Shown in pieces: positions 1,520 to 50,052 of a DNA stretch of 64,000 bases. The position numbers were made by a program, and so were the translations under genes. The DNA is from Spirochaetes bacterium ADurb.Bin133. GTDB lineage: Bacteria; Spirochaetota; GWE2-31-10; MWDO01. The notes under the pieces are model-generated. The model saw only the letters and a program-made list of their open reading frames with translations, searched no databases and was not told the DNA's origin. The stretch spans positions 24,886 through 88,885 of the forward strand of contig MWDO01000001.1 in the NCBI GenBank assembly GCA_002070605.1. The letters are read 5' to 3'. Each line of letters opens with the position of its first letter. Within the stretch, counting starts at the first letter, position 1.

Positions 1520-2548
1520 TTAACTTACTATCTTGGGCGCTTTTATTTTTAAAAAAATATCATCTTTTACTACTCTTTTAGATTGAACCGCTTTCCTTTT
1601 CCTTATTACCAATTTTATATTTTTAATAAACGTATAATGTCCAAAAAAAAATGTTGATATTATAAAAATATTTTTTCGTTGAATAGCCTGTTTGAGAGTT
1701 TTCAAAAAAGCAAAACCGCTAAAGCATAGTAAAGAAAAACATAAATTTTTAAATTTATAATTGACGAATATATTTGATAAGTGCGAGTATATCATATTTT
1801 TCCATTTAAAAATAAACACATCATCAGACTTACTATTATTTACGCCCAAATGAATATTCGATGATTCTGAAAATAAATAATTTTTATAACCATATAGGAT
1901 AGCCTTAATTCCTATGTCAGTATCATCGCCGCTGTAAATTAAATCATTATCATATCCTCCAATTTGTCCCCATAAATCTATATGAAAAAATAAGTTTGCG
2001 CCATGAGGAAATCCAATTTCAATCCCATTTAACTTTTTTAAATCTTCATTATTAATTTTTTTATTATAATTGATAAAAGTACTGCAAAAAAATCCGCCAT
2101 AATATCCCGATTTCGAGTATTCTTTTTCTACTAATGAAATGCTTACAAAACCCGGATTATTTAATTTCCTATAAAAATTTAACAACTTTTTTATCAAACT
2201 TGCATCTTCAATAAGCGCATCATTATCTAATAACAATATATATTCTCCGGTTGCTTTACTAATAGCAAAATTACAGGCAAAATTTTTCTCTTTAAATCTT
2301 GGACTTTGCAACAATCTAATGTTATTAAATGAACGAATATATTCTATACTTCCATCTGAAGATCCATTATCAACTACTATGACTTCTAGGTTATTGTAGT
2401 CTAATTTCATAATTCCCGGTAGCGTTGTTTCCAAATATTTTTTCCCGTTAAAATTAAGTACAACAATAGAAACTTTTGTATTCTTCAATATTTGCTCCCA
2501 TAATAATAATTTGTCCTGGTCAAGCATTTTTGTAACACTTTTTTCCAA
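1520..2548 (-). CDS. Family 2 glycosyltransferase
   Basis: VVLNFNGKKYL...VVDNGSSDGS plus a DxD motif (LLDNDA), which is the GT2 (GT-A) signature. Confidence 0.8.
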   Translation of the reverse strand: MEKSVTKMLDQDKLLLWEQILKNTKVSIVVLNFNGKKYLETTLPGIMKLDYNNLEVIVVDNGSSDGSIEYIRSFNNIRLLQSPRFKEKNFACNFAISKATGEYILLLDNDALIEDASLIKKLLNFYRKLNNPGFVSISLVEKEYSKSGYYGGFFCSTFINYNKKINNEDLKKLNGIEIGFPHGANLFFHIDLWGQIGGYDNDLIYSGDDTDIGIKAILYGYKNYLFSESSNIHLGVNNSKSDDVFIFKWKNMIYSHLSNIFVNYKFKNLCFSLLCFSGFAFLKTLKQAIQRKNIFIISTFFFGHYTFIKNIKLVIRKRKAVQSKRVVKDDIFLKIKAPKIVS

Positions 2549-2650
2549 GAATATCTATTAAAATTCTCTTTTCTCGCTTTACGCAAAAAAGCCAATACCT
2601 ACCAATAGCGCCTGAATTAGTAGCATAAGGAAATGTTATTGTTCGAATTT

Positions 2651-3510
2651 TCATGCTTTTACCTTCTTTTTCATCAAGTATTCAACCACGCCTATATCTA
2701 AATCTTTTTCTGATACAGTGTTAAGTTTAATTTTTTTCCTTGGAATATCCAAATTATATCTCCACAGTTTTTGATCCAACAATTCAAAATAATTACTAAA
2801 AAGTTGAATCCAATCGCTATGTCGAAGCCTGTTTGTATAACTTACACCTTCTTTAACTAAATATTTTTCCCAAACTTTATTTGAATATTTATAAAATAAA
2901 AATGGAGAATCGAAATTATAATGATCTCTCAAATCAATACGGCTAAAAACCAGACCTCCTTCATTCAAACAATTATACACCCCCAATATTGTCCCTTCAT
3001 AATTTTTAATATGTTCAAACACGCTTATACTTATAACTAAATCCGCCTTACAATTTAAATTTATATTACTTATATCGCCGGAAATATACTCAATTTTATC
3101 TTCTAAAAAATTTAGCCGGTCGTCTGTCTGTCTGTCTGTAAGCAAAATATTTTATCTTTATTTTTTTCTCTAAAATATGATAATTCTTCTTGAAAAAATA
3201 ATTTCTGTTTTTTATTTGTATAATTTCGCGGAAATTTATCTAATAGAATTACTTTTCTAGCTCCTGCTTGTAAAAAATTATATGCGTTTATATAAGAGTT
3301 TCCAGATCCCAATTCCATTACTACTTTATCTTTAATATCAAAATTTTGCCTACTCAAAAGTTCTTTTATATTGGGAAAGTAACTATCAATTATTTGACAA
3401 TTACTTGTATACCTTTTCCAAAAAAACAATCGATTTAATCTCATTTTTACATATAAAAATCTTATGATAAAATCAAATTTGATCAATATTAAATTAATTA
3501 ATTTTTTCAT
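2651..3510 (-). pseudogene. Class I SAM-dependent methyltransferase split into two ORFs (3112..3510 N-terminal, 2651..3145 C-terminal) at a tetranucleotide repeat; candidate phase-variable gene, currently out of frame
   Basis: The N-terminal ORF carries motif I (MELGSGNSY...ARKVILLD). The C-terminal ORF carries the post-I methyltransferase core (DLVISISVFEHI...LNEGGLVF). Both ORFs read through the same (CAGA)4 tract, translated as QTDRQT. Adding one repeat unit fuses them in frame. Confidence 0.7.
3123..3139. repeat. (TCTG)4 tetranucleotide simple-sequence repeat at the methyltransferase frameshift point
   Basis: Read directly: cgTCTGTCTGTCTGTCTGta. The only tetranucleotide microsatellite I found in the window. 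Confidence 0.9.
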
Positions 3511-4561
3511 TCAAACTCCTCCTATATAATTTATCCAATTCAACCGTATACTCATCTAACGAATACTTCTTAACATTCTCTTTTCCCGCTTCTACAAGCC
3601 GTTTTCTCAACTTTTCATCATTGTATAAGCGAGTTATCTTGTTTGCCAAATCATTTATATTCTTTGCTTCAAACATTAAACAATCAACTTGATCATTTAT
3701 AACTTCGTTTAATCCGGGAACATTAGATGCAATTACCGGAACGCCCATTGCTTGAGCTTCTAATTGAGTTAATCCCATTGGCTCAAAATGAGAAGGTATC
3801 ACAAAACAATCCAAACTATTATAAAATGATACCATATCCCTTACATTACCAAGGTATATAATGTTTGGATTATTATCTTTAGATATAAGATCATTTAATT
3901 TATTTGAGTCATTTCCATCTCCGGCAATTTTAAAAAAAATATTAGCATTGTTTTTAGCTATCAACATAGCGACATTATAAAAATCTAACCATCCTTTTCT
4001 AATTTCTAATCTGGCTGCGAATCCAACAGTAAACGTTTTCTTGCTTTCTAATTTTTCACAAATTTTTTTTTCCATGCTAAATAAAGTAATTGGATTATAA
4101 ATGATAGATATTTTATTTTTTGGTATTTTTGCATAGTTAATAAGCAATTTTTCTGTTGCTTTAGAAATAGAAATAAAAAAACTTACAAATTTATTAGAAA
4201 ATTTCAGAAATAAATTATAACTTTTTTTATTCAAGAAAATTTCTCCATGTTCATGAAATATAAGAAATAGTTTATTATTTAAAAAAATCTTTATAATTAA
4301 ACTCAATAGTTGAGATTTAAATAAGTGACAATGAATTATTTCTATTTGATTTCTTTTGATTATTTTTGAAATTTCAAATACAGATAATAAATTAAACTTT
4401 CCTCGACTTTTGGGAAATATAACATTATTTATTTGAATAATATTTGGTATTTTATTATTCAACCCTAAAAAAATATCATCGCTTCGTTTAGTTTGTATTC
4501 CTGCGATTATTCTTTGAGCGCCGCCGATACCATTATGATCAAAAATATGTAATACGTTCAT
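3494..4561 (-). CDS. Family 4 (GT-B) glycosyltransferase
   Basis: C-terminal EPMGLTQLEAQAMGVPVIASNVPGLNEVI, the GT4 EX7E-type motif. Confidence 0.8.
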   Translation of the reverse strand: MNVLHIFDHNGIGGAQRIIAGIQTKRSDDIFLGLNNKIPNIIQINNVIFPKSRGKFNLLSVFEISKIIKRNQIEIIHCHLFKSQLLSLIIKIFLNNKLFLIFHEHGEIFLNKKSYNLFLKFSNKFVSFFISISKATEKLLINYAKIPKNKISIIYNPITLFSMEKKICEKLESKKTFTVGFAARLEIRKGWLDFYNVAMLIAKNNANIFFKIAGDGNDSNKLNDLISKDNNPNIIYLGNVRDMVSFYNSLDCFVIPSHFEPMGLTQLEAQAMGVPVIASNVPGLNEVINDQVDCLMFEAKNINDLANKITRLYNDEKLRKRLVEAGKENVKKYSLDEYTVELDKLYRRSLNEKIN

Positions 4562-4637
4562 TTTCTACAACTTCCCCGAAAATTCTAAAATAAAGGCAAA
4601 AGCGCTTCGTTGTTTAACTGGCGAATTATACAATTCA

Positions 4638-6077
4638 TTATCTTTCACAATGTCCCTTCCATCCTTTAGAAGCTGCAAAATTTAAATTTAGATTTTTCCA
4701 ATCAATATTTGAATTAACTATAATCTCGTCATGGTTAAATTGGGTTAATTTAAAATATTTTTCTTTAAAACCTTCTCTGATTTTAGGAATTTTTATAAAG
4801 TTAAATCCCATTATATAACTTGCAACATAATCCACGGCAACAGGATGAAATCCTCCAATAAGAACTCCGCATTTCTTGGGGTAACCATCCATTGGTCCCT
4901 CTTTATCCATACCGATAATTCCGTCAATTATTGTCATATATTTCCTTTGCTGCGTTTCTTTCATTTCCCCATTTTTATTAGCAAAAAAGATAATATTATT
5001 CAAATCAAGAATTGTACGCCATATTGTATCGTTCCCATACCAATTTCCCTCCATAGTAGTTCCGCCATAAATAGCCCCATGTTCTTTTATTGTTTTACCC
5101 TTAAGGAAAATAATCCGAAATAGTTTTTTTAAAAGCGTATTGAAAAAATTTGGCATATACAGTTTACTATAATAATTTACGCGCCATTTTATAAATTCTT
5201 TTAGATTAAATTTCTCATATTCGTCAACTCCTCTTCGATGATGAGCAATCCATGATTTATCGCCATTTATACCGATAAGATTTTTCAAAGAAAGTGTAAC
5301 GCCTGCCTTTCTATGAGTTTTTAATTTTGGAACATTTATAAACAAATCAGCGTCAAGAATTGTTTTCGGAATTAGATATTCGTTTTTTTCATAGTTATGG
5401 CGCTTAGATACAGTTCCAATACCGTAATTGGTTATTTCAAGTTTTCTATAATCTTTAATTATTTCCTGTATATAACTCTTTTTTTTTAAGTCCACAGCCA
5501 AATAGCCTTTTGGATCTTGCGCCTTTTTTATTCTTTTATAATGGTGACCTTCCTTGTTTGATATTGCTATTTCATATCTTAAATCAAGTAAATTTATTTT
5601 AATTTTTTTTGAATCATAATACTTTACTAAATCTTTAAGTCCGTTTTGCTCTATCAAATTATCCCAATCAGCGTTTTGTAAAGGAACGTCGCAAATAGTA
5701 ATTAAACAATTATTATCTGTCGCTTTTAGCGCATAATCAATTACTGGTCTAATAATTGAGGCATGAGCGACCATAGATAAAATCCCCTCTAATCCAAATG
5801 GATGATTGTCAAAGACTAAATTGGGTTTTATAACTACATTATCGCCTTTTTCTACAATATTTTTTAATGGATTCCAGAATTTTGTATTATAATTTTCTTT
5901 ATCTAGACCTAGATTAAATAACAAGTTTCTTATTAGCGGATATATATTATTTAAGGTATCAGTCTCATATTCTAATTCTTCTAATTCAAATTCCGGATAA
6001 ATTTCAGGAGGATTAAACGGAGCTTTTGGATATTCTAAAGTTTCTGATTTTATTAACGATACTAATTTTTGATCCAA
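4638..6077 (-). CDS. DUF362 domain protein
   Basis: The C-terminal IIDGIIGMDKEGPMDGYPKKCGVLIGGFHPVAVDYVASYIMGF matches the DUF362 signature. It sits in the glycan locus. Confidence 0.5.
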   Translation of the reverse strand: MDQKLVSLIKSETLEYPKAPFNPPEIYPEFELEELEYETDTLNNIYPLIRNLLFNLGLDKENYNTKFWNPLKNIVEKGDNVVIKPNLVFDNHPFGLEGILSMVAHASIIRPVIDYALKATDNNCLITICDVPLQNADWDNLIEQNGLKDLVKYYDSKKIKINLLDLRYEIAISNKEGHHYKRIKKAQDPKGYLAVDLKKKSYIQEIIKDYRKLEITNYGIGTVSKRHNYEKNEYLIPKTILDADLFINVPKLKTHRKAGVTLSLKNLIGINGDKSWIAHHRRGVDEYEKFNLKEFIKWRVNYYSKLYMPNFFNTLLKKLFRIIFLKGKTIKEHGAIYGGTTMEGNWYGNDTIWRTILDLNNIIFFANKNGEMKETQQRKYMTIIDGIIGMDKEGPMDGYPKKCGVLIGGFHPVAVDYVASYIMGFNFIKIPKIREGFKEKYFKLTQFNHDEIIVNSNIDWKNLNLNFAASKGWKGHCER

Positions 6078-8507: not shown

Positions 8508-8650
8508 AATGTTTGCCTAAATTTAATAATAATGGGTCAGATATAGTATCTGAAGAGTTATAAATAGTTTCAGGGTCTATATCTATACAGTTATAAGATA
8601 ATATTAGCGCGCTTTTCGATTTTATTCAAGGTTTTTTGTTTATTTCCGTA

Positions 8651-8700
8651 ACCCGTCGATTTTTTGGGGAAACAAATTGACACATATGCGTCGAATTTAT
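8651..8700 (+). repeat. Solo left end of the MITE-like CATATG repeat family
   Basis: cccgtcgattttttggggaaacaaattgacacatatgcgtcgaattt matches the left terminal repeat of the full 21775-22012 element. Confidence 0.6.
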
Positions 8701-8732
8701 TTCCTTCCCCCCAAAATACCGACGGAGATCTT

Positions 8733-9662
8733 TCAATTCTCCACAATCTCCTTGACGCTGTACGACGAGTCGTTTGTCGTTTCGTAATAGCTTTTTGACA
8801 GCATATCGGCGATAAGTCCCGAAGTAAACAGTTGTATGCCGGTTAATCCCAGGAATACGGTCAAAATAGGCCACGCCGAGTCGGACATACTGACTCCTCG
8901 AAAGAATTGTACTACGGTAGCGCAGCCGGATAAGGCTCCAAGGAGTATAAAAAATATACCGATACCGCCGAGCAGATGAAGCGGTCTGACCGCGTATTTA
9001 TTCCAAAACCAGACGGATATCATATCGATAAAGCCTTTTACCGTTCTTTTCCAGTTGTATTTGGTCTTTCCCGCGGTCCTAGGGCGGTGATTAACCTCGA
9101 TTTCTCCGACCCTAAACCCTTTTATTTCAAGGATCGCGGGTATAAATCTGTGCATCTCGCCGTATAAACTTATAGACTCAAAGCACTCCTTTTTATAAAT
9201 TTTTAGAGAACAGCCGCTGTCGTGTATTCCGTCGTTAATAATTATTTTTCGTAAAAAATTCGCGCCGCGCGACGTAAACTTTTTGATTATAGTATCTTTT
9301 CTTCGTCTTCTCCAGCCCGACACTACGTCCAGATCGTTTGATTCTAGATGTTTGATAAGATTAGGAATATCGTTCGGATCGTTTTGTCTGTCTCCGTCTA
9401 TCGTAACTATATATTTATACTTTGCCTCTTTTATTCCGGCGTCCATCGCGGCGGTTTGACCGAAGTTTCTCCTAAGACGAATATATTTTATCGGAGAGAG
9501 ATTCTTCGCTATCTGATAAGTTCCGTCTGTCGAACCGTCGTCGACAAATATTATTTCATAAGTATATCTATTAGCTTCGCAGGTCTCCTTTATTTCTCTA
9601 TGAAGTTCAGCGACGTTGTCTTTTTCGTTAAAAATTGGCGCTACTATCGATATTTCCGGCAT
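8733..9662 (-). CDS. GT2 polyprenyl-phosphate sugar transferase (GtrB/ArnC/DPM1-like) with C-terminal TM helices
   Basis: ISIVAPIFNE...FVDDGSTDGT...DGDRQNDP, followed by two C-terminal hydrophobic helices. Confidence 0.8.
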   Translation of the reverse strand: MPEISIVAPIFNEKDNVAELHREIKETCEANRYTYEIIFVDDGSTDGTYQIAKNLSPIKYIRLRRNFGQTAAMDAGIKEAKYKYIVTIDGDRQNDPNDIPNLIKHLESNDLDVVSGWRRRRKDTIIKKFTSRGANFLRKIIINDGIHDSGCSLKIYKKECFESISLYGEMHRFIPAILEIKGFRVGEIEVNHRPRTAGKTKYNWKRTVKGFIDMISVWFWNKYAVRPLHLLGGIGIFFILLGALSGCATVVQFFRGVSMSDSAWPILTVFLGLTGIQLFTSGLIADMLSKSYYETTNDSSYSVKEIVEN

Positions 9663-9818
9663 ATTTTATCCTGTAAATTTTCTAAAATTATCGTAAATAT
9701 AGCGCATAACGGTAAAATAATCAAAATTTTTAAATACGGATTACTAAATAATAAAAAAATAACTTTGCGTTTTTTGTTTTTTTATATATAATTAAGAAAA
9801 AATTTTTGGAGCTTATTT

Positions 9819-12284
9819 ATGGTCAAGGAAAAAAATTTGTTAAACAGAGATATAGTTGAAAAAATAAAAAAGTCTTTTTTGCATCATCGAAAATATTCTC
9901 TAGCTACCGACGAATATTCGGCAACGCCAAACGACGATTTTTTTTGTCTTGCTTATACGGTAAGAGATATGTTGATTGAAAGGTGGATCGGCACGCAACA
10001 AGCGTATTATGCAGGCGACGTTAAAAGAGTATACTATCTTTCTCTCGAGTTTCTTATGGGCAGATCGCTCGGAAATAGTCTTATAAATCTAAAAATATTC
10101 GACGAATGCGAAGTCGCTTTAAAAGAGCTCGGATTGGACTTGGATACTATAAGAGAAGAGGAGAAAGACGCGGGACTCGGAAACGGGGGGCTTGGAAGAT
10201 TAGCGGCTTGTTTCTTAGATTCGTTAGCTACGTTGCAATACCCCGCTTACGGATACGGCATCAGATACGATTATGGTATTTTCAACCAAAAAATTGTAGA
10301 CGGTTATCAAGTGGAAGAGCCGGATAACTGGTTGAAATTGGGCTGTCCATGGGAGATCGAACGCCCGGAACACGAAGTGAGAATTCAATTTTACGGAAAT
10401 GTAACGAGTTATAAAGACAAACAGGATAGAACGCGCTTTAGATGGGAAAATACGCAAGACGTTTTTGCAATACCTCACGACGTTCCGATACCGGGGTATA
10501 ACGTCAATAACGTTAATACTTTTAAATTGTGGAAAGCTCATGCGACAAACGAGTTTGATCTGCGCGAATTTAACTTAGGGAACTACGTCGAAGCGGTTCA
10601 GGAAAAAAACAAGTCTGAAAATATTTCAAAAGTATTGTATCCTAACGACAACACTGAGACCGGTAAAATATTGAGATTAAAACAGCAGTATTTCTTTGTT
10701 TCCGCTTCATTAAAAGATATTATCAGAAGATTTTTAAAATACCGCAAAGATTTTAAAGAATTCCCGAATAAAGTCGCGATTCAGTTAAACGATACTCACC
10801 CGGCTATAGCTATTCCGGAACTTATGAGATTGTTGGTAGACGAACACGACGTACAATGGAAAGACGCTTGGGATATAACCGTCAAAACTTTTGGTTATAC
10901 CAATCACACATTGCTGCCGGAAGCTCTCGAAAAGTGGGCAGTCCCGATGTTTGAGAAACTTTTACCGAGACACTTACAGATTATTTATCAGATAAATTAC
11001 GAATTTTTGAGCGCCGTTTCGATGAAATATCCGGGCGACGTCGGCAGATTAAGAAGAATGTCTATTATCGACGAATCCGGCGAGAGATACGTTAGAATGG
11101 CTTACCTTTCTATAATAGGCAGTCATTCGGTTAACGGAGTCGCCCGTTTGCATTCGGAGCTATTAAAGACGGAATTGTTGAAGGATTTTTCGGAATTTTA
11201 TGAAGATAAATTTAACAACAAAACAAACGGTATTACTCAACGAAGATGGTTGTTAAAGTCAAATCCAAGTCTCTCAAAGTTGATTACAGATAAAATCGGA
11301 GATAAATGGGTAACGGATTTATATCAACTTAAACAACTTGAAAAATACGCCGACGATATGAATTTTATAAAGAGCTGGCAAAATATAAAACTGGAAAATA
11401 AGAAAGTTTTAGCCAAGATAATTAAAGAGGAATTGGACGTAATGGTCGACATAAATTCAATTTTCGACGTTCAAGTAAAGCGATTGCACGAATACAAAAG
11501 ACAGCTGCTTAACGTATTAAATATTATCAGTATGTACATTGATATTAAGAGTAATCCGGAAATTGATTTTGTCCCGAGGACTTTTATCTTTGGAGCAAAG
11601 GCGGCGCCGGGATATTATATGGCAAAATTAATTATTAAGCTAATTAATAACGTCGGCTCTATAATAAACAACGATCCGGACATAAAAGGAAAAATCAAGG
11701 TTCTGTTTTTACCGAATTATAGAGTATCGCTTGCCGAAAAGATTTTTCCCGCTTCCGACGTATCGGAACAAATTTCTACCGCCGGAAAAGAAGCGAGCGG
11801 CACCGGAAATATGAAATTTCAACTAAACGGGGCTCTGACTGTCGGCACGTTGGACGGCGCAAACATTGAGATCGCGGAAGAGGTCGGCGATAAAAACATA
11901 TTTATATTCGGGCTAAAAGTAGAAGAGGTAAAAGATTTATCGGCAAAAGGTTATAATCCCCGAGAATACTATGAAAAGAACGTGAGACTAAAAAAAGTTA
12001 TCGATCTTATTTCATGCGGATATTTTTCAACCGAGTCGCCCTCTTTATTTCAGCCGATAATCGACAGTCTCTTAAACGGCGACCAATATTTTCTTCTTGC
12101 GGACTTTCAGTCTTATTACGACTGTCAACAGAGAGTGTCGCAAGAGTATAAAAGCTACGATAACTGGACTAAAAAATCTATAATTAATGTGGCTAATACC
12201 GGTAAATTCTCAACAGACCGAACTATCAGAGAGTATGCCGAAGATATTTGGAATATCAAACCCTGCGACTTTGATATGAAATAA
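9819..12284 (+). CDS. glgP: Glycogen/maltodextrin phosphorylase
   Basis: 821 aa with EASGTGNMKFQLNGALTVGTLDGANIEI, the pyridoxal-phosphate Lys region of GT35 phosphorylases. Confidence 0.95.
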   Translation: MVKEKNLLNRDIVEKIKKSFLHHRKYSLATDEYSATPNDDFFCLAYTVRDMLIERWIGTQQAYYAGDVKRVYYLSLEFLMGRSLGNSLINLKIFDECEVALKELGLDLDTIREEEKDAGLGNGGLGRLAACFLDSLATLQYPAYGYGIRYDYGIFNQKIVDGYQVEEPDNWLKLGCPWEIERPEHEVRIQFYGNVTSYKDKQDRTRFRWENTQDVFAIPHDVPIPGYNVNNVNTFKLWKAHATNEFDLREFNLGNYVEAVQEKNKSENISKVLYPNDNTETGKILRLKQQYFFVSASLKDIIRRFLKYRKDFKEFPNKVAIQLNDTHPAIAIPELMRLLVDEHDVQWKDAWDITVKTFGYTNHTLLPEALEKWAVPMFEKLLPRHLQIIYQINYEFLSAVSMKYPGDVGRLRRMSIIDESGERYVRMAYLSIIGSHSVNGVARLHSELLKTELLKDFSEFYEDKFNNKTNGITQRRWLLKSNPSLSKLITDKIGDKWVTDLYQLKQLEKYADDMNFIKSWQNIKLENKKVLAKIIKEELDVMVDINSIFDVQVKRLHEYKRQLLNVLNIISMYIDIKSNPEIDFVPRTFIFGAKAAPGYYMAKLIIKLINNVGSIINNDPDIKGKIKVLFLPNYRVSLAEKIFPASDVSEQISTAGKEASGTGNMKFQLNGALTVGTLDGANIEIAEEVGDKNIFIFGLKVEEVKDLSAKGYNPREYYEKNVRLKKVIDLISCGYFSTESPSLFQPIIDSLLNGDQYFLLADFQSYYDCQQRVSQEYKSYDNWTKKSIINVANTGKFSTDRTIREYAEDIWNIKPCDFDMK

Positions 12285-21768: not shown

Positions 21769-21774
21769 CGTAAA

Positions 21775-22012
21775 GTTCGTCGGTTTTTTTGACACATATG
21801 CGTCGATTTCTATCGCAGGGCAATTTAACGCATATGTTGCGTTTTTTCATCGGGGAGCGACGCGGCGGCTATGAGGCGCATATGCGTCGATTTCTATCAG
21901 GGAGCGCCGCGTCGCATATGCGTATTTGGGGGCGGCTTCTTAAAATGACACATATGGAGCTAAAAATAAAATTCGACGCATATGGGATGTCGTCAAATCC
22001 CAAAAAACCGAC
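21775..22012. mobile_element. Full-length MITE-like element of the CATATG-palindrome family, with imperfect terminal inverted repeats of about 35 bp
   Basis: Left end cgtcggtttttttgacacatatgcgtcgatttc. Right end tcgacgcatatggg...caaatcccaaaaaaccgacggg. Five internal CATATG palindromic units. It lies between convergent genes. The track ORF 21789..22049 is an artefact of this element. Confidence 0.6.
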
Positions 22013-22013
22013 G

Positions 22014-22068
22014 GGTACTAAAAAAATAGCGACGAGAAATCCCGCTTAACGCGAGGCGCTCGTCGCTA
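22014..22068 (-). terminator. Rho-independent terminator of pfp
   Basis: 10-bp stem tagcgacgag / ctcgtcgcta, with the plus-strand A-run aaaaaaa forming the minus-strand U-tract after the stem. Confidence 0.55.
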
Positions 22069-22090
22069 TAACAAAAATATTCAACAATAG

Positions 22091-23903: not shown

Positions 23904-25085
23904 CTATTTATCAAAAAGAGACAATCTCAACTCTTTTATTTTATTATTAAACTCAATGTTCATAGGACCGGTAATAAGGTTTTTGTATCTTATTTCAATC
24001 AAATCGGTTCTGCCGGTTTCAGAATATATTTTAAACTCTTTATACTTTTCTCTCTTATCGTTAGTATCTGTTTTGACGTTGTCAAATTTATTATCGTCCT
24101 TGATATTGCCCCAATTTAGATGATACGCTTTACCGTTGAGCCATAGCTTAGTCCCAACCGGCAACGAGAGAATAATATATTTTTGAGCGGTTAGCGGAGC
24201 GGTAATATTTTGATTTGAAGTTAAATTAATGTTTGTTCTATAGTCTAAGTACCCCTCGGACTTTACGGTTACGCTATACGCCGCCGGTTGCAATGATACG
24301 TTTAAAGGGGTTTTGCCGTATAACTTATTATTTATATACACGTCCGCTCCGGCGATATTAGACGACACGGAGAGAGTATAACTGCTGGGAGTCAAGTTTG
24401 CATTAATATTTTGGTTAGAATTGAGAGTAACGTTCGACGCAAAATCGGTATATCCGGCAAGTTTTACAGTTACATTATAATTAGCCGACGGCAAAGAGAC
24501 GTTGAGCGGAGTCTTTCCGTATGGTTGGTTATTTATATATACGTCCGCGCCGGAGATATTAGACGACACGGAGAGATTATAACTAATAGGAGCGAAATTT
24601 GCGTTAATATTTTGGTTAGAATTTAGAGTAACGTTCGATACAAAATCGGTATATCCGGCAAGTTTTACAGTTACGTTATAACTAGCCGACGGCAAAGAGA
24701 CGTTGAGCGGAGTCTTTCCGTATGGTTGATTATTTATATATACGTCCGCGCCGGCGATATTAGACGACACGGAGAGATTATAATTAATTTGAGGCGCGGC
24801 TAGCGGTTCGAGAGTTACATTTAAATCTCCGGTACCGGCTTTATAACTAATAGTTTTTGATTGATAGCCGTCTTTAGTAAAAACAAAAACATACGTTCTA
24901 TTTCTTAATAACGGAATGGTAACCGGCGTAGGACCGAATTTATTGACTTTGTCGCTTTCCGTAGAAAAGTAAATCCCCGAAGGATTTGTAACGACTTTAA
25001 CGTAAACCGTGCTTGCGCTTCTCTGAGCAAACAGATTAGACGATAGCAAAAAAGCAATAAACAGCAAATAGTAAATTTTTTTCAT
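23904..25085 (-). CDS. Secreted protein with four tandem PEGA domains
   Basis: The unit AGADVYINNQPYGKTPLNVSLPSASYNVTVKLAGYTDF (PEGA signature) is repeated. Three of the units are nearly identical at DNA level, forming about 204-bp tandem repeats across 24190-24790. Signal peptide present. Confidence 0.75.
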   Translation of the reverse strand: MKKIYYLLFIAFLLSSNLFAQRSASTVYVKVVTNPSGIYFSTESDKVNKFGPTPVTIPLLRNRTYVFVFTKDGYQSKTISYKAGTGDLNVTLEPLAAPQINYNLSVSSNIAGADVYINNQPYGKTPLNVSLPSASYNVTVKLAGYTDFVSNVTLNSNQNINANFAPISYNLSVSSNISGADVYINNQPYGKTPLNVSLPSANYNVTVKLAGYTDFASNVTLNSNQNINANLTPSSYTLSVSSNIAGADVYINNKLYGKTPLNVSLQPAAYSVTVKSEGYLDYRTNINLTSNQNITAPLTAQKYIILSLPVGTKLWLNGKAYHLNWGNIKDDNKFDNVKTDTNDKREKYKEFKIYSETGRTDLIEIRYKNLITGPMNIEFNNKIKELRLSLFDK

Positions 25086-30470: not shown

Positions 30471-30486
30471 ATTGTCGAAAAATATT

Positions 30487-30562
30487 GTCCTACGCGGACA
30501 GCGCAAAGGCGCTTCGCCCTTGACCCGTATATTGAAATCGACGCATATGTGTCAATTTTTTA
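30487..30562. repeat. Left direct repeat (about 70 bp) bounding the TA islet; member of the CATATG repeat family
   Basis: gtcctacgcggacagcgcaaaggcgcttcgcccttgacccgtatattgaaatcgacgcatatgtgtcaa is about 94% identical to 32226-32294. Confidence 0.8.
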
Positions 30563-30605
30563 TTTTTTAGCGCGTTGTCGTCTCTTACATTACAAGTTAA
30601 CTATA

Positions 30606-31342: not shown

Positions 31343-31457
31343 AACTTTTCCCTTTTTTTATAGCATATTGTCGTTATATTATTGCCAATTTTAATATTAT
31401 TATTAATTTAATACTTTTAAACAAGAATATCAATAAAATTTACTCCAAAAATAGTAT

Positions 31458-31598
31458 CCCGTCAGTTTTTTGGGGAATAGAAAATATCTGTCCCATATGC
31501 GGCATTTTTATTTTTGACACATATGCGTCGGACGCGCGCGGCAATTGTCTCAGAAAATTTAACGCATATGGGCTATTTACATAAAATTTATGACAGTT
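31458..31598. repeat. CATATG-family repeat element with left terminal repeat plus internal module C
   Basis: cccgtcagttttttgggg...ttgacacatatgcgtcggacgcgcgcggcaattgtctcagaaaatttaacgcatatgggctatttacataaaatttatgacag. The module also occurs at 32295-32350 and 38556-38632. Confidence 0.7.
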
Positions 31599-31801
31599 TC
31601 CTTAATTTGATTAATTTTCTCCAAACCTTCTAAATAACATACAATAGCTTCATTAGCATTTTTTATCGCATCGTCTAAATTATCGCCTTGAGTAAAGCAT
31701 CCGTCCAAAGCCGGCGCCGTAACATTGTATCCCCCGTCTTCATCCTTTTCTAAAACAATATTAAATTTCATATTCAATACCTCGCAGTTAATATAATACA
31801 A
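31577..31801 (-). CDS. HicB-like (UPF0150) antitoxin-fold protein, with no HicA partner detectable
   Basis: FNIVLEKDEDGGYNVTAPALDGCFTQGDNLDDAIKNANEAIVCYLEGL is the classic HicB/UPF0150 motif. Its last 8 codons are encoded by the repeat element. I found no hicA-like ORF in either flank. Confidence 0.65.
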   Translation of the reverse strand: MYYINCEVLNMKFNIVLEKDEDGGYNVTAPALDGCFTQGDNLDDAIKNANEAIVCYLEGLEKINQIKETVINFM

Positions 31802-31953
31802 TATCCCAAAAAAATCAAGTTAGATATAAGATTAGCGAGAAATATAACGCGCCATTATTGTAGCGCCTGTCAAAATTTGAAATTAACGCATATGGGGTTT
31901 TTGGTAAAACGCCGGAATTGCCGGGACTAAAGCTGAAGTATCAAAAAAATAAT

Positions 31954-32169: not shown

Positions 32170-32225
32170 AATTTCCCACCTCTTGCATTAATTATACCCA
32201 AAAACAAAATTAAAGTCAAGAACTT

Positions 32226-32352
32226 GTCCTACGCGGACAGCGCAAGGGCGAAACGCCCTTGACCCGTATATTGAAATCGACGCATATGTGTCAATTTTTC
32301 ATCGAGGCGCATTGCGGCAATTGTCTCAGAAAATTTGACACATATGCGTCCC
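32226..32352. repeat. Right direct repeat of the TA islet plus module C of the CATATG family
   Basis: Direct repeat gtcctacgcggacagcgcaagggcgaaacgccc...gtgtcaa, followed by tcatcgaggcgcattgcggcaattgtctcagaaaatttgacacatatgcgtcc. Confidence 0.8.
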
Positions 32353-32602: not shown

Positions 32603-35600
32603 TTACTTTACCTCGCCGGTCGATATATCTATCGCCGCTATTCTGCCTCTAATCTTACCCCCTATAGTAGTAAAATAACCGCCAACATAGACGTTACTTC
32701 CAGAGACAGCCAAGGTATAAACTACGCCGCTAGCGTTTGGATTCCAATCCGTCGCTAAACCGGTAGTTATATCTATAGCCGCTATTCTACTTCTCGTCTG
32801 ACCCCCTATAGTAGTAAACCAGCCGCCCACATAGACGTTACTACCCGACGCAGCCAAGGTAGAAACTGTCCCATCAGCGTTGGGATTCCAATCCGTCGCT
32901 AAACCGGTCGATATATCTATAGCCGCTATATTACTCCTACTCTTACTCCCTATCGTAGTAAAATCGCCGCCCACATAGACGTTACTACCAGATACAGCCA
33001 AGGTAATAACTTCACCATTAGCGCTTGGATTCCAATCCGTCGCCAAACCGGTAGTTATATCTATAGCCGCTATATAATTCCTACTCTGGCCCCCTATAGC
33101 AGGAAACCAGCCGCCGACATAGACGTTACTACCCGATACAGCCAAGGTATTAATTGTATAGATAGCGTTTGGATTCCAATCCGTCGCTAAACCGGTAGTT
33201 ATATCTATAGCGGCTATATAATTCCTACTCTTACCCCCTATAGCAGTAAAATCGCCGCCGACATAGACGTTACTTCCAGACACAGCCAAGGTATTAACAC
33301 TAGTATCGTGGTTGTCGCCGCTAGCGTTTGGATTCCAATCCGTCGCCAAACCGGTCGATATATCTATAGCCGCTATATTACTCCTACTCTTACCCCCTAT
33401 AGCAGTAAAATGGCCGCCGACATAGACGTTACTACCCGATACAGCCAAGGTAGAAACGCTAGCATAATCGTCGCTACTAGCGTTGGGATCCCAATCCGTC
33501 GCTAAACCGGTAGTGATATCTATAGCGGCTATATTACTCCTACTCTGGCCCCCTATCGTAATAAAACTACCGCCGACATAGACGTTACTACCAGATACAG
33601 CCAAGGTATTAACGTAAGCATGATCGCCGCTAGCGTTTGGATCCCAATCCGTCGCCAAACCGGTAGTTATATCTATAGCCGCTATATTTCTCCTACTCTT
33701 ACCCCCTATCGAGTCAAAATTACCGCCGACATAGACGTTACTTCCGGACACAGCCAAGGTATAAACGTGAGCATAATAATCGCCGCTAGCGTCGGGATTC
33801 CAATCCGTCGCTAAGCCCGTCGTTATATCTATAGCGGCTATATAATTCCTACTCTTACCCCCTATAGTAGTAAAATCTCCGCCGACATAGACGTTACTAC
33901 CCGACGCAGCCAAGGTATAAACGTAATAGCTAGCGTTTGGATTCCAATCCGTCGCCAAACCGGTAGTTATATCTATAGCCGCTATTCTATTCCTCGCCTT
34001 ACCCCCTATCGAGGTAAAATAACCGCCGACATAGACGTTACTACCCGATACAGCTAATGCCCTAACCGCCCTGTCAGCGTTTGGATTCCAATCCGTCGCC
34101 AAACCGGTAGTTATATCTATAGCCGCTATTCTATTCCTCGCCTTACCCCCTATCGAGGTAAAATAACCGCCGACATAGACGTTATTTCCGGACACAGCCA
34201 AGGTATAAACTTCGCCGTTAACGTTGGGATTCCAATCCCTAACCGAGCCGTCGGAGTTTATCCACGCTATTCTATTCCTTGTATATGCGCCGACTTGCGT
34301 AAATCCGCCTCCTATAATCCAGCCGCCGCCTCCGTCTGATATTACGCGCCTAATTGAGCCGTTAACTGCGGGGAAATTTGCATCCTCATAATCGCTCGAC
34401 ATATCGAGTAACGCGCCTTGAGTAAATCTGCCGACTCGACTAAAACTCCCCCCTATATACAATATCCCGTCTTTCTGAACCATACAATTAATATTTCCAT
34501 CCGTTCCGATACCGTCTTTGCCGATATTTACTACCGTAGGATCTGTATCCCCCTGTTTCATATCGTAACAAGCCGTATTTCCAGCCGCATCTTTTACTAT
34601 CGCGTTAAAGTAATACGACTTTTTTTCAGATAACCCCGTCATATTATAACTTGTATTGGACGACCACTCCATAGCGACTATCCCGTTTGTCTCGCAACCG
34701 GTAACATCCCAGAGATTATCCGTCGTAGAGTAGTAGAGTTTATACTGTAGCGGTCCGTTATCGTCTGTAGCTTCGCCCCAGTTTACGGTAAAACCGCTTG
34801 TCGTCGTATTTGAAAACCATATAGCGCCGCCAATAACCGGCGGAGTAGTTTCTAAAACAAATTTATTTGAAGTAGCTTTTGATTCGTTACCCTTACCGTC
34901 GATAGCGTATATATGAAGGTAATAATCGCCGTCTCCGGTAGATCGACAAAGAGTATCTCCCGACGTAAATTGCGTCCAGGTCCCTTCGGCTGGAAAAGTC
35001 GCCGATTGAGTCCACTGATATTTGGGATAGCCCTCCGCCATACCGCTCTGATCGGTTACCGTTACGTCAGTAGTTTGCTCTTTTTGAGGAGCAACATTGC
35101 CGTTTCTACCAAAGGTTATTGAAGGAGGGTCGCATTTAGCGCTCGCTTCATTACTATACGCCGAACTCCCAAAACTATTTACCGCTTTTACTCTATAGTA
35201 ATATGTCGTCCCGATTACCGCCGTCGTATCGTCAAAAGTAGTCGTATTTGCGCTTAACGGCGTTGCGTCCGTCCCGCCGAGAGCAGAATACCCGCTTCCC
35301 GAACTCTCGCTTCTCTCCACTACAAAGCCCGTCTCTACTTTAGAGTTATCCGTCCAGTCGAGGACTATCTTGTTGTATCCCTCCGCCGCAGTCAAACCCG
35401 AAGGGGCGTTCGGAGCTTTGTCAAAATCGTTAGTAGTTAAAGTTATAGTTTTCGTAGTCGAATGATAGTCGTAAATATGAACGCTTTCAATTACCGAAGA
35501 CAACATTTTACCATTTTTCATCAACTTGAATATATATTTATAAAATCCGGACGAGACCGAGCCGTTTGCGTAATTAACGCTCGACCCGCCTGTAAAAATA

Positions 35601-36124: not shown

Positions 36125-37666
36125 CTAATTAATAATAGTAAAAATAATGGACGCCGAATACATAATGCCGTTTTTATATGCAAAGAGAGTCAGATTATAT
36201 ACTCCCGGCTCGTAAAGAGCGCTATTTATTACGCAAGTATTTCCGGTATTTCCCAAAGAATCTCCTTCAAGATACCACTCCCATTGAGTCGCTCCATCTA
36301 ATACGGCGGAGACATCAAGAGTCTCGCCTTGCGATTTATCTAATTGATTATCAAACTCTCCGAAATCTATTACAGGATTATCGGGAGTAACAAGTTCGAT
36401 CGTAATATTAAAGTTACCCTTATCTATATTCGTTATGGTATAACTTACCTCGCCGCTCCAGTTGCCGACCGCGTCTTGCGCCTTTGCGTAGATTGTAGTA
36501 TCTTCGCTTACCGTAAAGGGAGCGGTATACGATTGATACTCGCCCGCTCCGATTTTATAGCGCTTTACCGCCGAGTCCGCTGAAAATGTTATAGTTACCG
36601 TTACGACTCCCGTTGTCGGAGTAGTAGGGCTTATTGAAATAGTCGGATTAGCCGGCGGAGTTTTGTCAATATTAGCGACCGTCGCCGTTACGCTACCCGC
36701 ATTTCCGGCGGCGTCCTTAAACTCAAATGTGAAACTTCCGTTAACGGTAAAGGTATAACTATTTGAGCCGCCGTTGTTCGTTATGGTTACAGGCTCGTTC
36801 GGAGTTATCGTAGCGACTACGTTCCCGTTAGTCGGAGCAGTCGTCGAATACGCTACCGTCGCAGTAGGAGCAGTTTTATCAATATTAGTGACCGTCGCCG
36901 TTGCGCTACCCGCATTTCCGGCGGCGTCCTTAAACTCAAATGTGAAACTTTCGTTAGCGGTAAAGGTATAACTATTTGAGCCGCCGTTGTTCGTTATGGT
37001 TACAGGCTCGCTAGCCGTCATAGTAGCGATTACGTTCCCGTTAGTCGGAGCGGTCGTCGAATACGCTACCGTCGCAGTAGGAGCAGTCGTATCTATATTA
37101 CTTATAGTTAAACTTCTTTCGTTACTCCAGTTGCCGACCGCGTCTTGCGCCTTTGCGTAGATAGTAGTATTCTCGCTTACCGTAAAGGGAGCGGTATACG
37201 ATTGATATCCGCCCGCTCCGATTTTATAGCGCTTTACCGCCGAGTCCGCTGAAAATGTTATAGTTACCGTTACGACTCCCGTTGTCGGAGTAGTAGGGCT
37301 TATTGAAATAGTCGGATTAGCCGGCGGAGTTTTGTCAATATTAGCGACCGTCGCCGTTACGCTACCCGCATTTCCGGCGGCGTCCTTAAACTCAAATGTG
37401 AAACTTCCGTTAGCGGTAAAGGTATAACTATTTGAGCCGCCGTTGTTCGTTATGGTTACAGGCTCGCTAGCCGTCATAGTAGCGATTACGTTCCCGTTAG
37501 TCGGAGCGGTCGTCGAATACTCCACCGTCGCAGTAGGAGGAGTCGTATCAGACTCCCCGCCTCTGTCCCCGCTATATATGACTTCTTCGGAGCAGTTAAT
37601 AGAGAAAAACAGAACGCCGATTAACGATAATAAAATAAATAGTGGAAACAAATTTTTCTTAAGCAT
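36125..37666 (-). CDS. Surface lipoprotein with repeated Ig-like and CHB_HEX_C-like domains
   Basis: Lipobox FSINC. The unit TPPTATVEYSTTAPTNGNV...NIDKT occurs three times. The unit RYKIGAGGYQSYTAPFTVSENTTIYAKAQDAVGNWS (chitobiase C-terminal-like) occurs twice. DNA direct repeats of about 330 bp lie at 36460-36800 and 37130-37465. Confidence 0.65.
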   Translation of the reverse strand: MLKKNLFPLFILLSLIGVLFFSINCSEEVIYSGDRGGESDTTPPTATVEYSTTAPTNGNVIATMTASEPVTITNNGGSNSYTFTANGSFTFEFKDAAGNAGSVTATVANIDKTPPANPTISISPTTPTTGVVTVTITFSADSAVKRYKIGAGGYQSYTAPFTVSENTTIYAKAQDAVGNWSNERSLTISNIDTTAPTATVAYSTTAPTNGNVIATMTASEPVTITNNGGSNSYTFTANESFTFEFKDAAGNAGSATATVTNIDKTAPTATVAYSTTAPTNGNVVATITPNEPVTITNNGGSNSYTFTVNGSFTFEFKDAAGNAGSVTATVANIDKTPPANPTISISPTTPTTGVVTVTITFSADSAVKRYKIGAGEYQSYTAPFTVSEDTTIYAKAQDAVGNWSGEVSYTITNIDKGNFNITIELVTPDNPVIDFGEFDNQLDKSQGETLDVSAVLDGATQWEWYLEGDSLGNTGNTCVINSALYEPGVYNLTLFAYKNGIMYSASIIFTIIN

Positions 37667-37864: not shown

Positions 37865-37990
37865 TATAAATATTGTAACCCGTCGGTTTTTTTAATTTGA
37901 CACATATGGGGCTTTGTTTTAACGCATATGCGACGATTTGCTCTTAACATCATATGTGTCAATTTTATTTTTTCATCAGGGCGCGTCGGG
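37865..37990. repeat. CATATG-family element with left terminal repeat plus module E
   Basis: cccgtcggtttttttaatttgacacatatggggctttgttttaacgcatatgcgacgatttgctcttaacatcatatgtgtcaattttatttttt. Module E recurs at 39205-39265. Confidence 0.7.
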
Positions 37991-38084
37991 GCGTATAAAA
38001 AATACCTTGAAATCAATATTTATTTTTGATATATTTGAATTTAGAATAAGTATCGGGAGTTTTATTTTGACAACCTCAGAAATT

Positions 38085-38379: not shown

Positions 38380-38530
38380 AAGAAGCTTTTGAAAACAGAC
38401 AGGGAGCCGATTATTCGATATTCGTCAGTTTTTCAAAGGAAGAAGTTGTTAAAAATTATAATAATGCAAAATTATTTATTGAAGAAGTAGAAATCTATAT
38501 ATTGAAGAAGTTGGAAAAAAGCTCTAATTA
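38380..38530 (+). pseudogene. Truncated or frameshifted HEPN remnant downstream of the MNT gene
   Basis: In a different frame, about 50 codons read EAFENRQGADYSIFVSFSKEEVVKNYNNAKLFIEEVEIYILKK. This is a HEPN C-terminal half (R...DY) with no N-terminal half. Confidence 0.45.
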
Positions 38531-38555
38531 GAATATTCAAAACGGGAATTCCCAC

Positions 38556-38640
38556 TTTTATCGAGGCGCATTGCGGCAATTGTCTCAGAAAATTTAACGC
38601 ATATGCGCTATTTGCATAAAATTTATGACAGTCTCCCAAT
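38556..38640. repeat. Module C copy of the CATATG family
   Basis: atcgaggcgcattgcggcaattgtctcagaaaatttaacgcatatgcgctatttgcataaaatttatgacagt. Confidence 0.8.
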
Positions 38641-39097: not shown

Positions 39098-39204
39098 AAA
39101 GACTGCTATTTCACAAATATAATATTTTTTTATCCAATATTCAATAAGTTTGTATAAATTTTCAAATTACCATTTACGAGGGGTAAATGGATAACATAAG
39201 CGTT

Positions 39205-39405
39205 GTTTTAACGCATATGCGACGATTCGCTCTTAACATCATATGTGTCAATTTTATTTTTTTGACACATATGGGCTATTCTTTTATCAGGGAGCGGCTT
39301 ACATGCAGCTCCATATGTGTCAAATTTTTAAAGCAGTAGAGCGCGCCCCGCTGTTTGTCGGTATCATATGTGTCAAATTTTTATTCCCAAAAAACCGGCG
39401 GGATA
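39205..39405. repeat. Composite CATATG-family element (module E, three TTGACACATATG units and a right terminal repeat)
   Basis: Six CATATG cores in about 190 bp. It ends in ttcccaaaaaaccggcggg, the reverse complement of the left terminal repeat cccgccggttttttggg. Confidence 0.75.
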
Positions 39406-39477
39406 CTTTCAAATCAGATTATTTAGTTGAAAATTAAAATTTTTTCTGTTATAAACATTCTAAAAAAAGGGGGCGCT

Positions 39478-45798: not shown

Positions 45799-45817
45799 GA
45801 GAACTCAACGCGGCGCG

Positions 45818-45878
45818 CATGCGGTTATATAAGTTTTGGGCTCGAATATCGCATAGGGAGTATAAAATAAGTTGTCGG
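45818..45878 (+). pseudogene. Silent 3' fragment of the OMP-like partner gene family
   Basis: It encodes ...ACGYISFGLEYRIGSIK*. Compare the C-termini of 49248..49955 (GVEYRVGSIK*) and 52683..53324 (YGYISFGIEYRIGYCLDK*). Confidence 0.65.
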
Positions 45879-47971: not shown

Positions 47972-47984
47972 GAATTGCGCGATA

Positions 47985-48080
47985 CAACCGACGTCTATTC
48001 AATAATGAAACCCGCATGCGGTTATATAAGTTTTGGGATCGAATATCGCATAGGGTATTGTCCGGATAAGTAAGAGATAA
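47985..48080 (+). pseudogene. Silent 3' fragment (about 32 codons) of the OMP-like gene family
   Basis: It encodes ...TTDVYSIMKPACGYISFGIEYRIGYCPDK*, nearly identical to the C-terminus of 52683..53324 (KYTTDVYSIMRPAYGYISFGIEYRIGYCLDK*). Confidence 0.7.
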
Positions 48081-49955: not shown

Positions 49956-50052
49956 GAGATAGAAATTATAGATATTATAGATTATAAATAAAAACTATTG
50001 ACAAAATTAAATTTTTATTATATAATTTGATTAAATTATTAGGAGGTAAATT

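Follow-up and report, generated by a model that had tools for sequence, protein, structure and literature searches.

What is the palindromic block of about 240 bp that separates a gene for a 275-aa protein from a PPi-phosphofructokinase gene in Spirochaetes bacterium ADurb.Bin133, and how did it come to be there? The block lies in a 64,000-nt stretch of contig MWDO01000001.1 (the whole of which is hereafter called the window), and a first-pass annotation of the letters took it for one of at least nine copies of a novel repeat family resembling MITEs (miniature inverted-repeat transposable elements). Having compared the window with related loci from other contigs (numbered with the prefix L), we consider it likely that the block belongs to a previously undescribed MITE family that is dispersed in this uncultured digester spirochaete and whose build is nearest to that of other bacterial MITEs, of the modular pneumococcal BOX elements, and, in its gene-bearing forms, of mobile insertion cassettes. 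This reading is supported by conserved inverted ends, duplications of 7-9 bp, nesting, and many dispersed copies at other loci. The host is an uncultured species of Spirochaetota with a G+C content of ~35 per cent, and contigs more than 99.8 per cent identical to the window occur in many anaerobic-digester metagenomes.

Anatomy and dispersal of the family

The element is complete, as first described: it measures 240 bp end to end and sits between the 275-aa gene, whose stop is at 21768, and the phosphofructokinase gene, whose terminator hairpin occupies 22026-22069. Its left end, TTCGTCGGTTTTTTT, is slightly degenerate and its right end, CCCAAAAAACCGACGGG, is canonical; the 12-nt arms at 21778-21789 and 22002-22013 are 100 per cent complementary, and the single-strand fold of the element has a z-score of -5.2. 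Five internal palindromic units had been claimed, but six CATATG sites were counted. The open reading frame (ORF) 21789..22049, already suspected to be an artefact, is confined to the element and the adjoining terminator and is most likely spurious. More generally, a complete element of the family consists of inverted ends of ~22 bp, (G-Y-R-N)CCCGTCGGTTTTTTGGGG, around one to many oriented 12-nt boxes, TTRACRCATATG, and the box often belongs to a unit of ~47 bp, of which a GC-rich spacer is the other part. Full palindromes are two boxes with one CATATG in common; many boxes are half-sites that lack a palindromic partner, and boxes occur in both orientations.

The window contains 24 CATATG sites against 8.4 expected, a number reached in 0 of 100 shuffles. 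Counted inside versus outside the elements, 23 of the 24 fall in nine intergenic patches that total 1132 bp, or 1.77 per cent of the window, so that CATATG is concentrated there and depleted in the remainder. The oriented box TTRACRCATATG has 18 matches in the window (0.03 expected) and the end motif CCCGYCRRTTTTTT has 5 exact matches (0.02 expected). Reading of the sequence verified every other locus that the first-pass annotation had listed (8651, 30487, 31458, 31866, 32226, 37865, 38556, and 39205; Table 1). Outside the elements CATATG is strongly avoided (1 site in ~63 kb of the window versus ~8 expected, and 0-1 per 15 kb in the related contigs L017 and L020-L022), a possible sign of an NdeI-type restriction system in the lineage; the avoided site is concentrated in the elements.

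The family is not confined to the window. A metagenome collection was searched with the pattern CCCGTCGGTTTTTTGG, 0-25 nt, then TTRACRCATATG, which the window itself does not match, and 39 further loci were recovered (273 kb in total, ~25 of them non-redundant), none of which overlaps the window. They come from digester and sludge metagenomes, several of which also contain the window's species, and are spread over many contigs, mostly between housekeeping genes; the small elements are non-coding and sit between convergent genes and also in promoter regions. In the 76 distinct ends that we collected, CCCGTCGGTTTTTTGG is almost invariant and positions 1-16 are conserved at 87-100 per cent. Positions -4 to -2 are enriched in G-T-A (or G-C-G), which sets the true tip 4 nt outside CCCG. 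When the ends were paired, 25 distinct elements emerged. They measure 72-320 bp, apart from five of 0.9-2.1 kb and a 9.4-kb span, which must be two unrelated ends.

These loci bear on the possibility that the repeats arose by a few segmental duplications within one variable region of the window and form no family. Such duplications would explain three local modules, R70, C, and E, which the first-pass annotation had regarded as reusable parts of the family: they occur in the window only, as direct repeats that flank toxin-antitoxin islets, and are absent from the 273 kb of other family loci. However, the family's ends and boxes recur at the 39 independent loci elsewhere, and the copies at 8.6 kb and 21.8 kb of the window are outside the variable region. 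As an account of the family as a whole, local duplication is refuted and has next to no chance of being correct; it stands for modules R70, C, and E only.

No described family was matched by Rfam, BLAST, or literature searches, or by Pfam searches of ~30 neighboring ORFs. Rfam found only tRNAs in the window and in L003 and L010, and BLAST of the 251-bp element returned zero matches in plasmid or phage collections. Scans of viral contigs gave one chance match in a tail-fibre coding repeat and otherwise none. Literature searches for spirochaete MITEs turned up no account of the family, and searches with sequence strings returned primer lists only. A collection of genomes was also scanned with a two-box pattern. 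Among the matches listed, L003 is truly homologous and L010 is possibly related, whereas L002 and L004-L009 look like unrelated tandem repeats in which the shared 12-mer is a matter of chance. L010 (180-245) is from a digester Spirochaetes bin with a G+C content of 32 per cent and has boxes TTTAACGCATATG, TTTGACACATATG, and TTTGACGCATATATG at 22-bp spacing beside a tRNA gene, without family ends. Separately, a palindromic module, ATATTCAAAACGGGAATTCCCGTTTTGAATAT, is present whole or in half in 15 sequences (the window at 38533-38553, L017 at 5123, L024 at 4959-4990, and 12 other loci), both in and out of elements, and resembles a hairpin of the bidirectional terminator type or else a small repeat family in its own right.

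Marks of transposition and change of the internal arrays

Target-site duplications were sought at 25 end pairs, with flanks taken flush with the 4-nt-extended ends and with mismatched left and right flanks as the control. Direct repeats of 9 bp flank 4 of the 25 pairs: L028 (9/9), L043 at 782-884 (9/9), L043 at 537-651 (8/9), and L034 at 4140-4242 (8/9), the two perfect repeats reading ATAGTTATC and TAAATTAAA. None of 600 mismatched flank pairs reached at least 8/9. By eye, an 8-bp repeat, GGAGTAAA, was recognized in L023 and a 7-bp repeat, ACAGAGG, in L059. Elements are also found nested within one another (L034 4140-4242 within 4102-4373, where it splits a box, and L023 129-233 within 48-268), and the insertion that splits a box duplicates (A/G)ATTCGACG. 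Such duplications and nesting are the marks of staggered-cut transposition.

In these respects, the family resembles bacterial MITEs such as the Correia elements of Neisseria and the RUP elements of Streptococcus pneumoniae, which are likewise small, intergenic, and non-coding, with inverted ends, target duplication, and many dispersed copies. They also share a strong hairpin potential and possible placement in terminator or promoter regions; because the ends of our family form long hairpins (z-scores -4 to -6), transcribed copies may affect RNA ends. In Correia and RUP elements the duplicated target is TA, and known transposase families are linked to them. The family described here differs from them in its 7-9 bp duplication, in the lack of a transposase among the ORFs examined, and in its variable internal array of a 12-nt box that resembles a protein site.

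Mosaic, intergenic patches with palindromic boxes both ways round, and strong folding of the elements, would also be expected of repetitive extragenic palindromes (REPs) and of the bacterial interspersed mosaic elements (BIMEs) that they form, if such palindromes were spread as single-stranded hairpins by a REP-associated tyrosine transposase (RAYT, of the Y1/HUH type) and assembled into mosaics. REPs are imperfect palindromes of 20-40 bp with a GTAG or CGTC tag, and RAYT genes are flanked by them. CGTC REPs likewise lack a dedicated transposase, and a Y1_Tnp gene stands beside the phosphofructokinase gene of a more distant relative, L018. Yet HUH transposition does not yield long inverted ends with flanking duplications of 7-9 bp, and many boxes are half-sites. 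The features of CGTC- and GTAG-tagged REPs, namely stems of 8-9 bp, loops of 4-5 nt, and a CCA tail (PMC3733652), are missing here. The bearer of the Y1 gene, L018, has no boxes, and no Y1 gene lies near any family locus examined. Given the absence of the tag and of the stem/loop pattern, and of a Y1 gene near family loci, membership in REPs or BIMEs (CGTC REPs included) is largely refuted, and we regard an origin of this kind as very improbable.

Once inserted, the elements continue to change. At the same site in two strains, the element of L059 is 72 bp and that of L024 is 224 bp, the extra 152 bp being bounded by CATATGYGTCAATTT; L057 and L061 differ at another shared site by one 46-bp unit. 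The most extensive array is in L003, a 3.2-kb contig of another digester metagenome-assembled genome (MAG), in which the 47-bp unit AAAAATTGACACATATGGAGCTATATGCGCCGCGTCGCTCCCTGATA is repeated in 24 tandem copies. The internal array of boxes and units thus grows and shrinks in place by box-box recombination, and transposition, nesting, and unequal recombination between boxes account for the mosaic patches. The L003 array (1997-3148) lies at a contig end without inverted ends and opens with a module C-like leader, GCGGCGACTGTCTTGAAAAATTGACACATATGG; since its bin is named 'Firmicutes bacterium ADurb.Bin193', either the contig was put in the wrong bin or the unit crossed to another organism. A further difference between the near-identical strains L057 (3792-5371) and L061 (~571-586) is a 1.6-kb indel bounded by the near-repeat AATGTTGTC / AATGTCGTC, which is unrelated to the family ends.

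Pneumococcal BOX elements, which consist of boxA, a variable number of boxB, and boxC and have no associated protein gene, are similar when compared by build alone: complementary end modules surround variable units of ~45 bp whose copy number at the same site depends on the strain. Clear target duplications and a longer, gene-bearing form distinguish the family described here from BOX.

Content at the same site also differs between the window and its relatives. In L017, whose phosphofructokinase is 95 per cent identical, the gene order is kept, but the spacer between the 275-aa and phosphofructokinase genes is 176 bp long instead of 322 bp. Its sole contents are an end-like solo stretch, CCCGTCGGTTTTT, and a repeat module of another kind, and there is zero CATATG in 15 kb (the spacers were compared by eye, as a MAFFT global alignment was uninformative). 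In L020-L022, whose ThrH is 91 per cent identical, other genes lie upstream of thrH than in the window, and, rightward of the element end at 39402, homology to the window resumes after ~20 bp. These differences in element content and synteny indicate that the patches are recent and changeable and lie at variable points of the genome.

A long form and its predicted DNA-binding protein

Some members of the family carry a gene. The long form, 0.8-0.9 kb in length, comprises a left end, 2-5 inward-pointing co-oriented boxes, an AT-rich conserved leader, an ORF of 171 aa, and, immediately behind its stop codon, a right end. The gene always has this setting. When the ORFs of the new loci were compared all against all, the 171-aa protein was found at nine loci with 82-93 per cent identity, and the ORF lies between family ends in L023, L025, L033, L035/L044, L037, L041, and L049; the copy in L023 is 891 bp long and has the 8-bp target duplication. 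Because the sequence just upstream of the leader joins the right end in short elements, we infer that the latter may be internal-deletion derivatives of the 0.9-kb form. The protein belongs to an orphan family without a Pfam or NCBIfam match: it has only 26 matches among 1.84 billion representative proteins, and its ~100 clusters are all from MAGs of Spirochaetota, with at least nine paralogues in 'ADurb.Bin133'. For two of these proteins and for the window's ThrH the longest contig recorded is 206,535 bp in each case, which suggests that the three may share a contig. Across gene copies, the synonymous divergence (dS) is 0.3-0.5 and the ratio of nonsynonymous to synonymous divergence (dN/dS) is 0.16 (0.09-0.22), so the protein has been kept by purifying selection.

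The AlphaFold model of the 171-aa protein consists of two beta-alpha-alpha repeats (strands at residues 5-13 and 72-80, each followed by two helices) and a helical tail; its mean predicted local distance difference test score (pLDDT) is 73, rising above 85 within the repeats. The best matches of the model in the PDB are TraY (chains E-G of the F relaxosome), VirC2, and AcaB, all of them single-chain ribbon-helix-helix (RHH) proteins, although these matches are weak (E 0.3-4), and the PHROG family 'Arc-like repressor' matches a distant member of the 171-aa family (E = 4e-6). With moderate confidence, we predict that the protein is a single-chain double RHH DNA-binding protein and not an enzyme. 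The distant relative L018 (26 per cent G+C; phosphofructokinase 80 per cent identical; 9335-9826 and 4240-5035) contains a Y1 (IS200-like) transposase gene just upstream of its phosphofructokinase gene and, separately, a 25 per cent identical homologue of the 171-aa protein with its own 45-nt flanking inverted repeats, which include the conserved leader TTTGTAAAGGATTTTCT.

The first-pass annotation suggested that the CATATG palindromes are protein-binding sites and that TTGACA hexamers embedded in the elements look promoter-like. The former suggestion is plausible, as a predicted RHH protein is encoded beside the box array, and from the position of its gene the 171-aa protein may be the one that binds the boxes. 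The latter is not supported: a -10 hexamer with at least 4/6 matches follows at 16-18 nt in 30 per cent of cases versus 24 per cent at random positions. F TraY, in which one chain contains the whole RHH dimer fold, binds direct and inverted sites in the form of a train (PMC12117103), and the two systems are alike in the predicted fold, with two beta-alpha-alpha repeats in one chain, and in the presence of short direct and inverted sites beside the place where a DNA-processing enzyme must act. They differ in that the structural match to TraY is weak (E 0.3-1.5; TM-score normalized to the target up to 0.61), in that relaxase, oriT, and conjugation genes are lacking in the family, and in an extra helical tail of ~70 aa. 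By analogy, the predicted RHH protein would bind the CATATG boxes (box DNA TTGACACATATG, TCGACGCATATG) and would then act as a regulator of its own gene, or shape the left end on the transposase's behalf, or both, in the way that the TraY train acts at oriT for the F-plasmid relaxase.

A predicted DNA-binding protein beside its putative sites could also suggest that the boxes are operators, iterons, or centromere-like sites for a host RHH protein, comparable to ParR/parC, omega, or SopB/sopC, and that they spread by function and not by mobility. The 12-nt box is sharply conserved, arrays of up to 24 tandem 47-bp units (L003) resemble plasmid centromeres, the patches of the window lie at a switch in gene-strand bias, and ParAB is encoded near thrH in a relative. 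The boxes are missing, however, from orthologous sites of relatives with 91-95 per cent protein identity (0-1 CATATG per 15 kb); they are found between convergent genes as well as in promoter regions, and they travel with inverted ends, target duplications, and nesting. Moreover, no ParA or ParM partner adjoins the RHH gene, and neither a canonical parS nor a DnaA-box cluster is present in the window. We consider host sites of this kind an improbable explanation.

Several results weigh against the MITE interpretation or against the role that it gives to the 171-aa protein. No transposase was found in the window or among ~30 ORFs adjoining ends at other loci (Pfam; ~50 ORFs overall, ~340 kb sampled), the latter being plain housekeeping genes, and thus the autonomous partner that defines a MITE is missing. 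Target-site duplications, an expected trace of such elements, are present at a minority of pairs elsewhere (4-6 of 25) and at none of the window copies, which we read for this reason as old or rearranged. No clean empty-versus-filled site was recovered between strains: those with the window's phosphofructokinase protein have DNA more than 99.8 per cent identical, with identical elements and no polymorphism. The RHH assignment rests on a model of medium confidence, with non-significant Foldseek E-values (0.3-1.5) and no Pfam or NCBIfam match. Finally, a 48 per cent identical homologue in another lineage (L062) has neither family ends nor CATATG boxes around it, so the 171-aa gene could be a captured passenger and not the element's own factor.

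If the elements are MITEs, they would move by the cut-or-copy-and-paste action of a DDE-type transposase that makes 9-bp staggered cuts. Such an enzyme was not found and would therefore have to act in trans from elsewhere; the genome may have a master copy at another place, or the family may depend on an unlinked enzyme. Mobile insertion cassettes (MICs) offer a comparison for the gene-bearing elements: in MIC231 of the Bacillus cereus group, for example, the inverted repeats of an insertion sequence surround passenger genes without a transposase, and the donor, IS231, is known together with its transposase. Here, too, end pairs enclose non-transposase genes, among them the 171-aa gene in L023 and, in the window, genes for a nucleotidyltransferase and ParE; the cargo of the larger end pairs is VapBC (L055), a YitT membrane protein, or an alpha/beta hydrolase. 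In contrast to MIC231, a cognate insertion sequence was not found for this family and a duplication is seen only at the 171-aa form (L023), and for the latter reason the toxin-antitoxin 'cassettes' may be two neighboring solo ends. The 0.9-kb form might instead be a complete, minimal transposon of a previously undescribed kind that encodes a specificity factor only, whose RHH protein recognizes the box array and recruits a host or unlinked nuclease or transposase. We think this unlikely, and a new catalytic activity of the small protein itself is far less likely still.

Copies in the window and their significance

Table 1. Elements, solo ends, boxes, and local repeats of the family in the window
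Position	Strand	Feature	Remarks
8648-8730	+	Minimal complete element: left end, one palindromic box TTGACACATATGCGTCGA, right end	75 bp end to end (8652-8726), extended by 4 nt on either side
21772-22019	+	Flagged element, including 4-nt outer extension	21776-22015 end to end, 240 bp; six CATATG boxes
21849-21895	-	Full 47-bp internal unit (box and GC-rich spacer)	Homologous to L003 array unit, nhmmer E = 1.3e-6
21896-21919		Half unit after the full 47-bp unit	nhmmer E = 5.5e-3 with L003 unit profile
30485-30563	+	Local 79-bp repeat ('R70') ending in palindromic box TCGACGCATATGTGTCAA	94 per cent identity to 32224-32302 (family D14)
31454-31575	+	Solo left end (CCCG from 31458), three boxes, local module C	Abuts 3' end of HicB-like gene
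31866-31900	+	Solo box AAATTAACGCATATGGGG between two small genes
32224-32350	+	Second 79-bp local repeat copy with palindromic box, then module C and another box	Repeat families D14, D11
37875-37997	+	Left end (CCCG from 37879), three boxes, local module E, half unit (37975-37997)
38530-38636	+	Palindromic module ATATTCAAAACGGGAATTCCC, then module C with box, then remnant of HicB-like 3' end
39200-39406	+	Right-end region with module E, five boxes, and the right end itself, up to 39402 and a further 4-nt extension
39286-39328	-	Full 47-bp unit in right-end region	nhmmer E = 9e-9 with L003 unit profile

The smallest complete copy (8648-8730) has RNA hairpin z-scores of -4.1 (+ strand) and -6.2 (- strand) and no recognizable target-site duplication (5/9 matches). 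The left end at 37875 and the right end at 39402 form a pair on either side of 1.5 kb that contains toxin-antitoxin genes (nucleotidyltransferase; ParE and its partner); because this pair also lacks a target-site duplication (4/9 matches), 37879/39402 may represent two separate ends and not a single composite element.

Clustering of the elements around toxin-antitoxin and large surface-protein genes, proposed initially, is real in the window, where small toxin-antitoxin genes (HEPN/nucleotidyltransferase, HicB-like, ParE) lie amid the patches and adjoin two large surface-protein genes, and VapBC lies between ends in L055. Most other copies, however, lie between housekeeping genes, and in the window some patches separate ordinary genes, one being downstream of a glycosyltransferase gene and one at the 275-aa gene/phosphofructokinase terminator. 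The first-pass annotation also held that an element supplies the coding end of the HicB-like gene. The last 7 codons and the stop do form part of a 64-bp repeat (31538-31601 and 38573-38636), but the second copy of this repeat is a remnant with a mutated stop (...ETVINFMQ vs ...ETVINFM*), which points to a duplicated junction of gene end and element and makes it unclear that the element supplied coding sequence.

The copies of the 79-bp repeat at 30485 and 32224 are direct repeats on either side of a 1.7-kb toxin-antitoxin island, and direct repeats of family sequence at 37911/39200 also flank a toxin-antitoxin islet. This arrangement raises the question of an integron-like array, in which the repeats would be attC-type sites flanking promoterless toxin-antitoxin cassettes; one box variant, ATTTAAC / GTTAAAT, even fits the attC core RYYYAAC / GTTRRRY. 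The more frequent box variant, with TTGACA, departs from that core, however, and Pfam found no integrase domain in the window. The cassette genes are in mixed orientation, most other family loci flank housekeeping genes and not cassettes, and the ends and target duplications indicate transposition. An integron is therefore barely plausible.

Some features of the window are separate from the family. Gene orientation and GC skew change sign near 36-39 kb, and in a related species (L021 1473-3111) parB-parA lies 7 kb upstream of thrH. The 30-40 kb part of the window could be origin-proximal, although no DnaA-box cluster or parS was found there; the idea that the window holds an origin or centromere was rejected, given the lack of a canonical parS and of a DnaA-box cluster and a GC skew that follows the gene strand. 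A second, unrelated repeat family (...CCCGCATRCGGTTATATAAGTTTTGGGMTCGAATATCGCATAGGG...) occurs at 45807-45871, 47982-48072, 49910-49956, and 53233-53323, and also at 48195-48365/51613-51783 and 49135-49253/52547-52665. Its block contains genes for a Tsp45I-like restriction enzyme and a DNA methylase as well as two paralogous gene pairs (48259-49251 with 51677-52663; 49248-49955 with 52683-53324), and suggests a defence or variable island that has been duplicated. Large surface-protein genes and a PEGA-domain gene (32616-34238, 36659-37550, and 24327-24788) contain long in-frame tandem repeats of 144/156 bp, 213 bp, and 201 bp, and a contig of the same species encodes a surface protein of 1215 aa whose counterpart in the window has 1168 aa; surface-protein genes are thus likely to vary in length between strains.

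A spirochaete lineage common in anaerobic digesters shows puzzling repeats between genes, spurious ORF calls, and breaks in assemblies, and the family explains these. Its elements mark spots of the genome that vary between strains, among them toxin-antitoxin islets, surface-protein genes, and a synteny break. They also offer a ready-made strain marker, since a fixed site varies in its number of internal units. The long form is unusual in combining inverted ends, a target duplication, and a site array with a selected, multi-copy gene for a predicted DNA-binding protein and no transposase. If the 171-aa protein is needed for movement, the long form would be a non-autonomous element that carries its own recognition or architectural factor and borrows catalysis.

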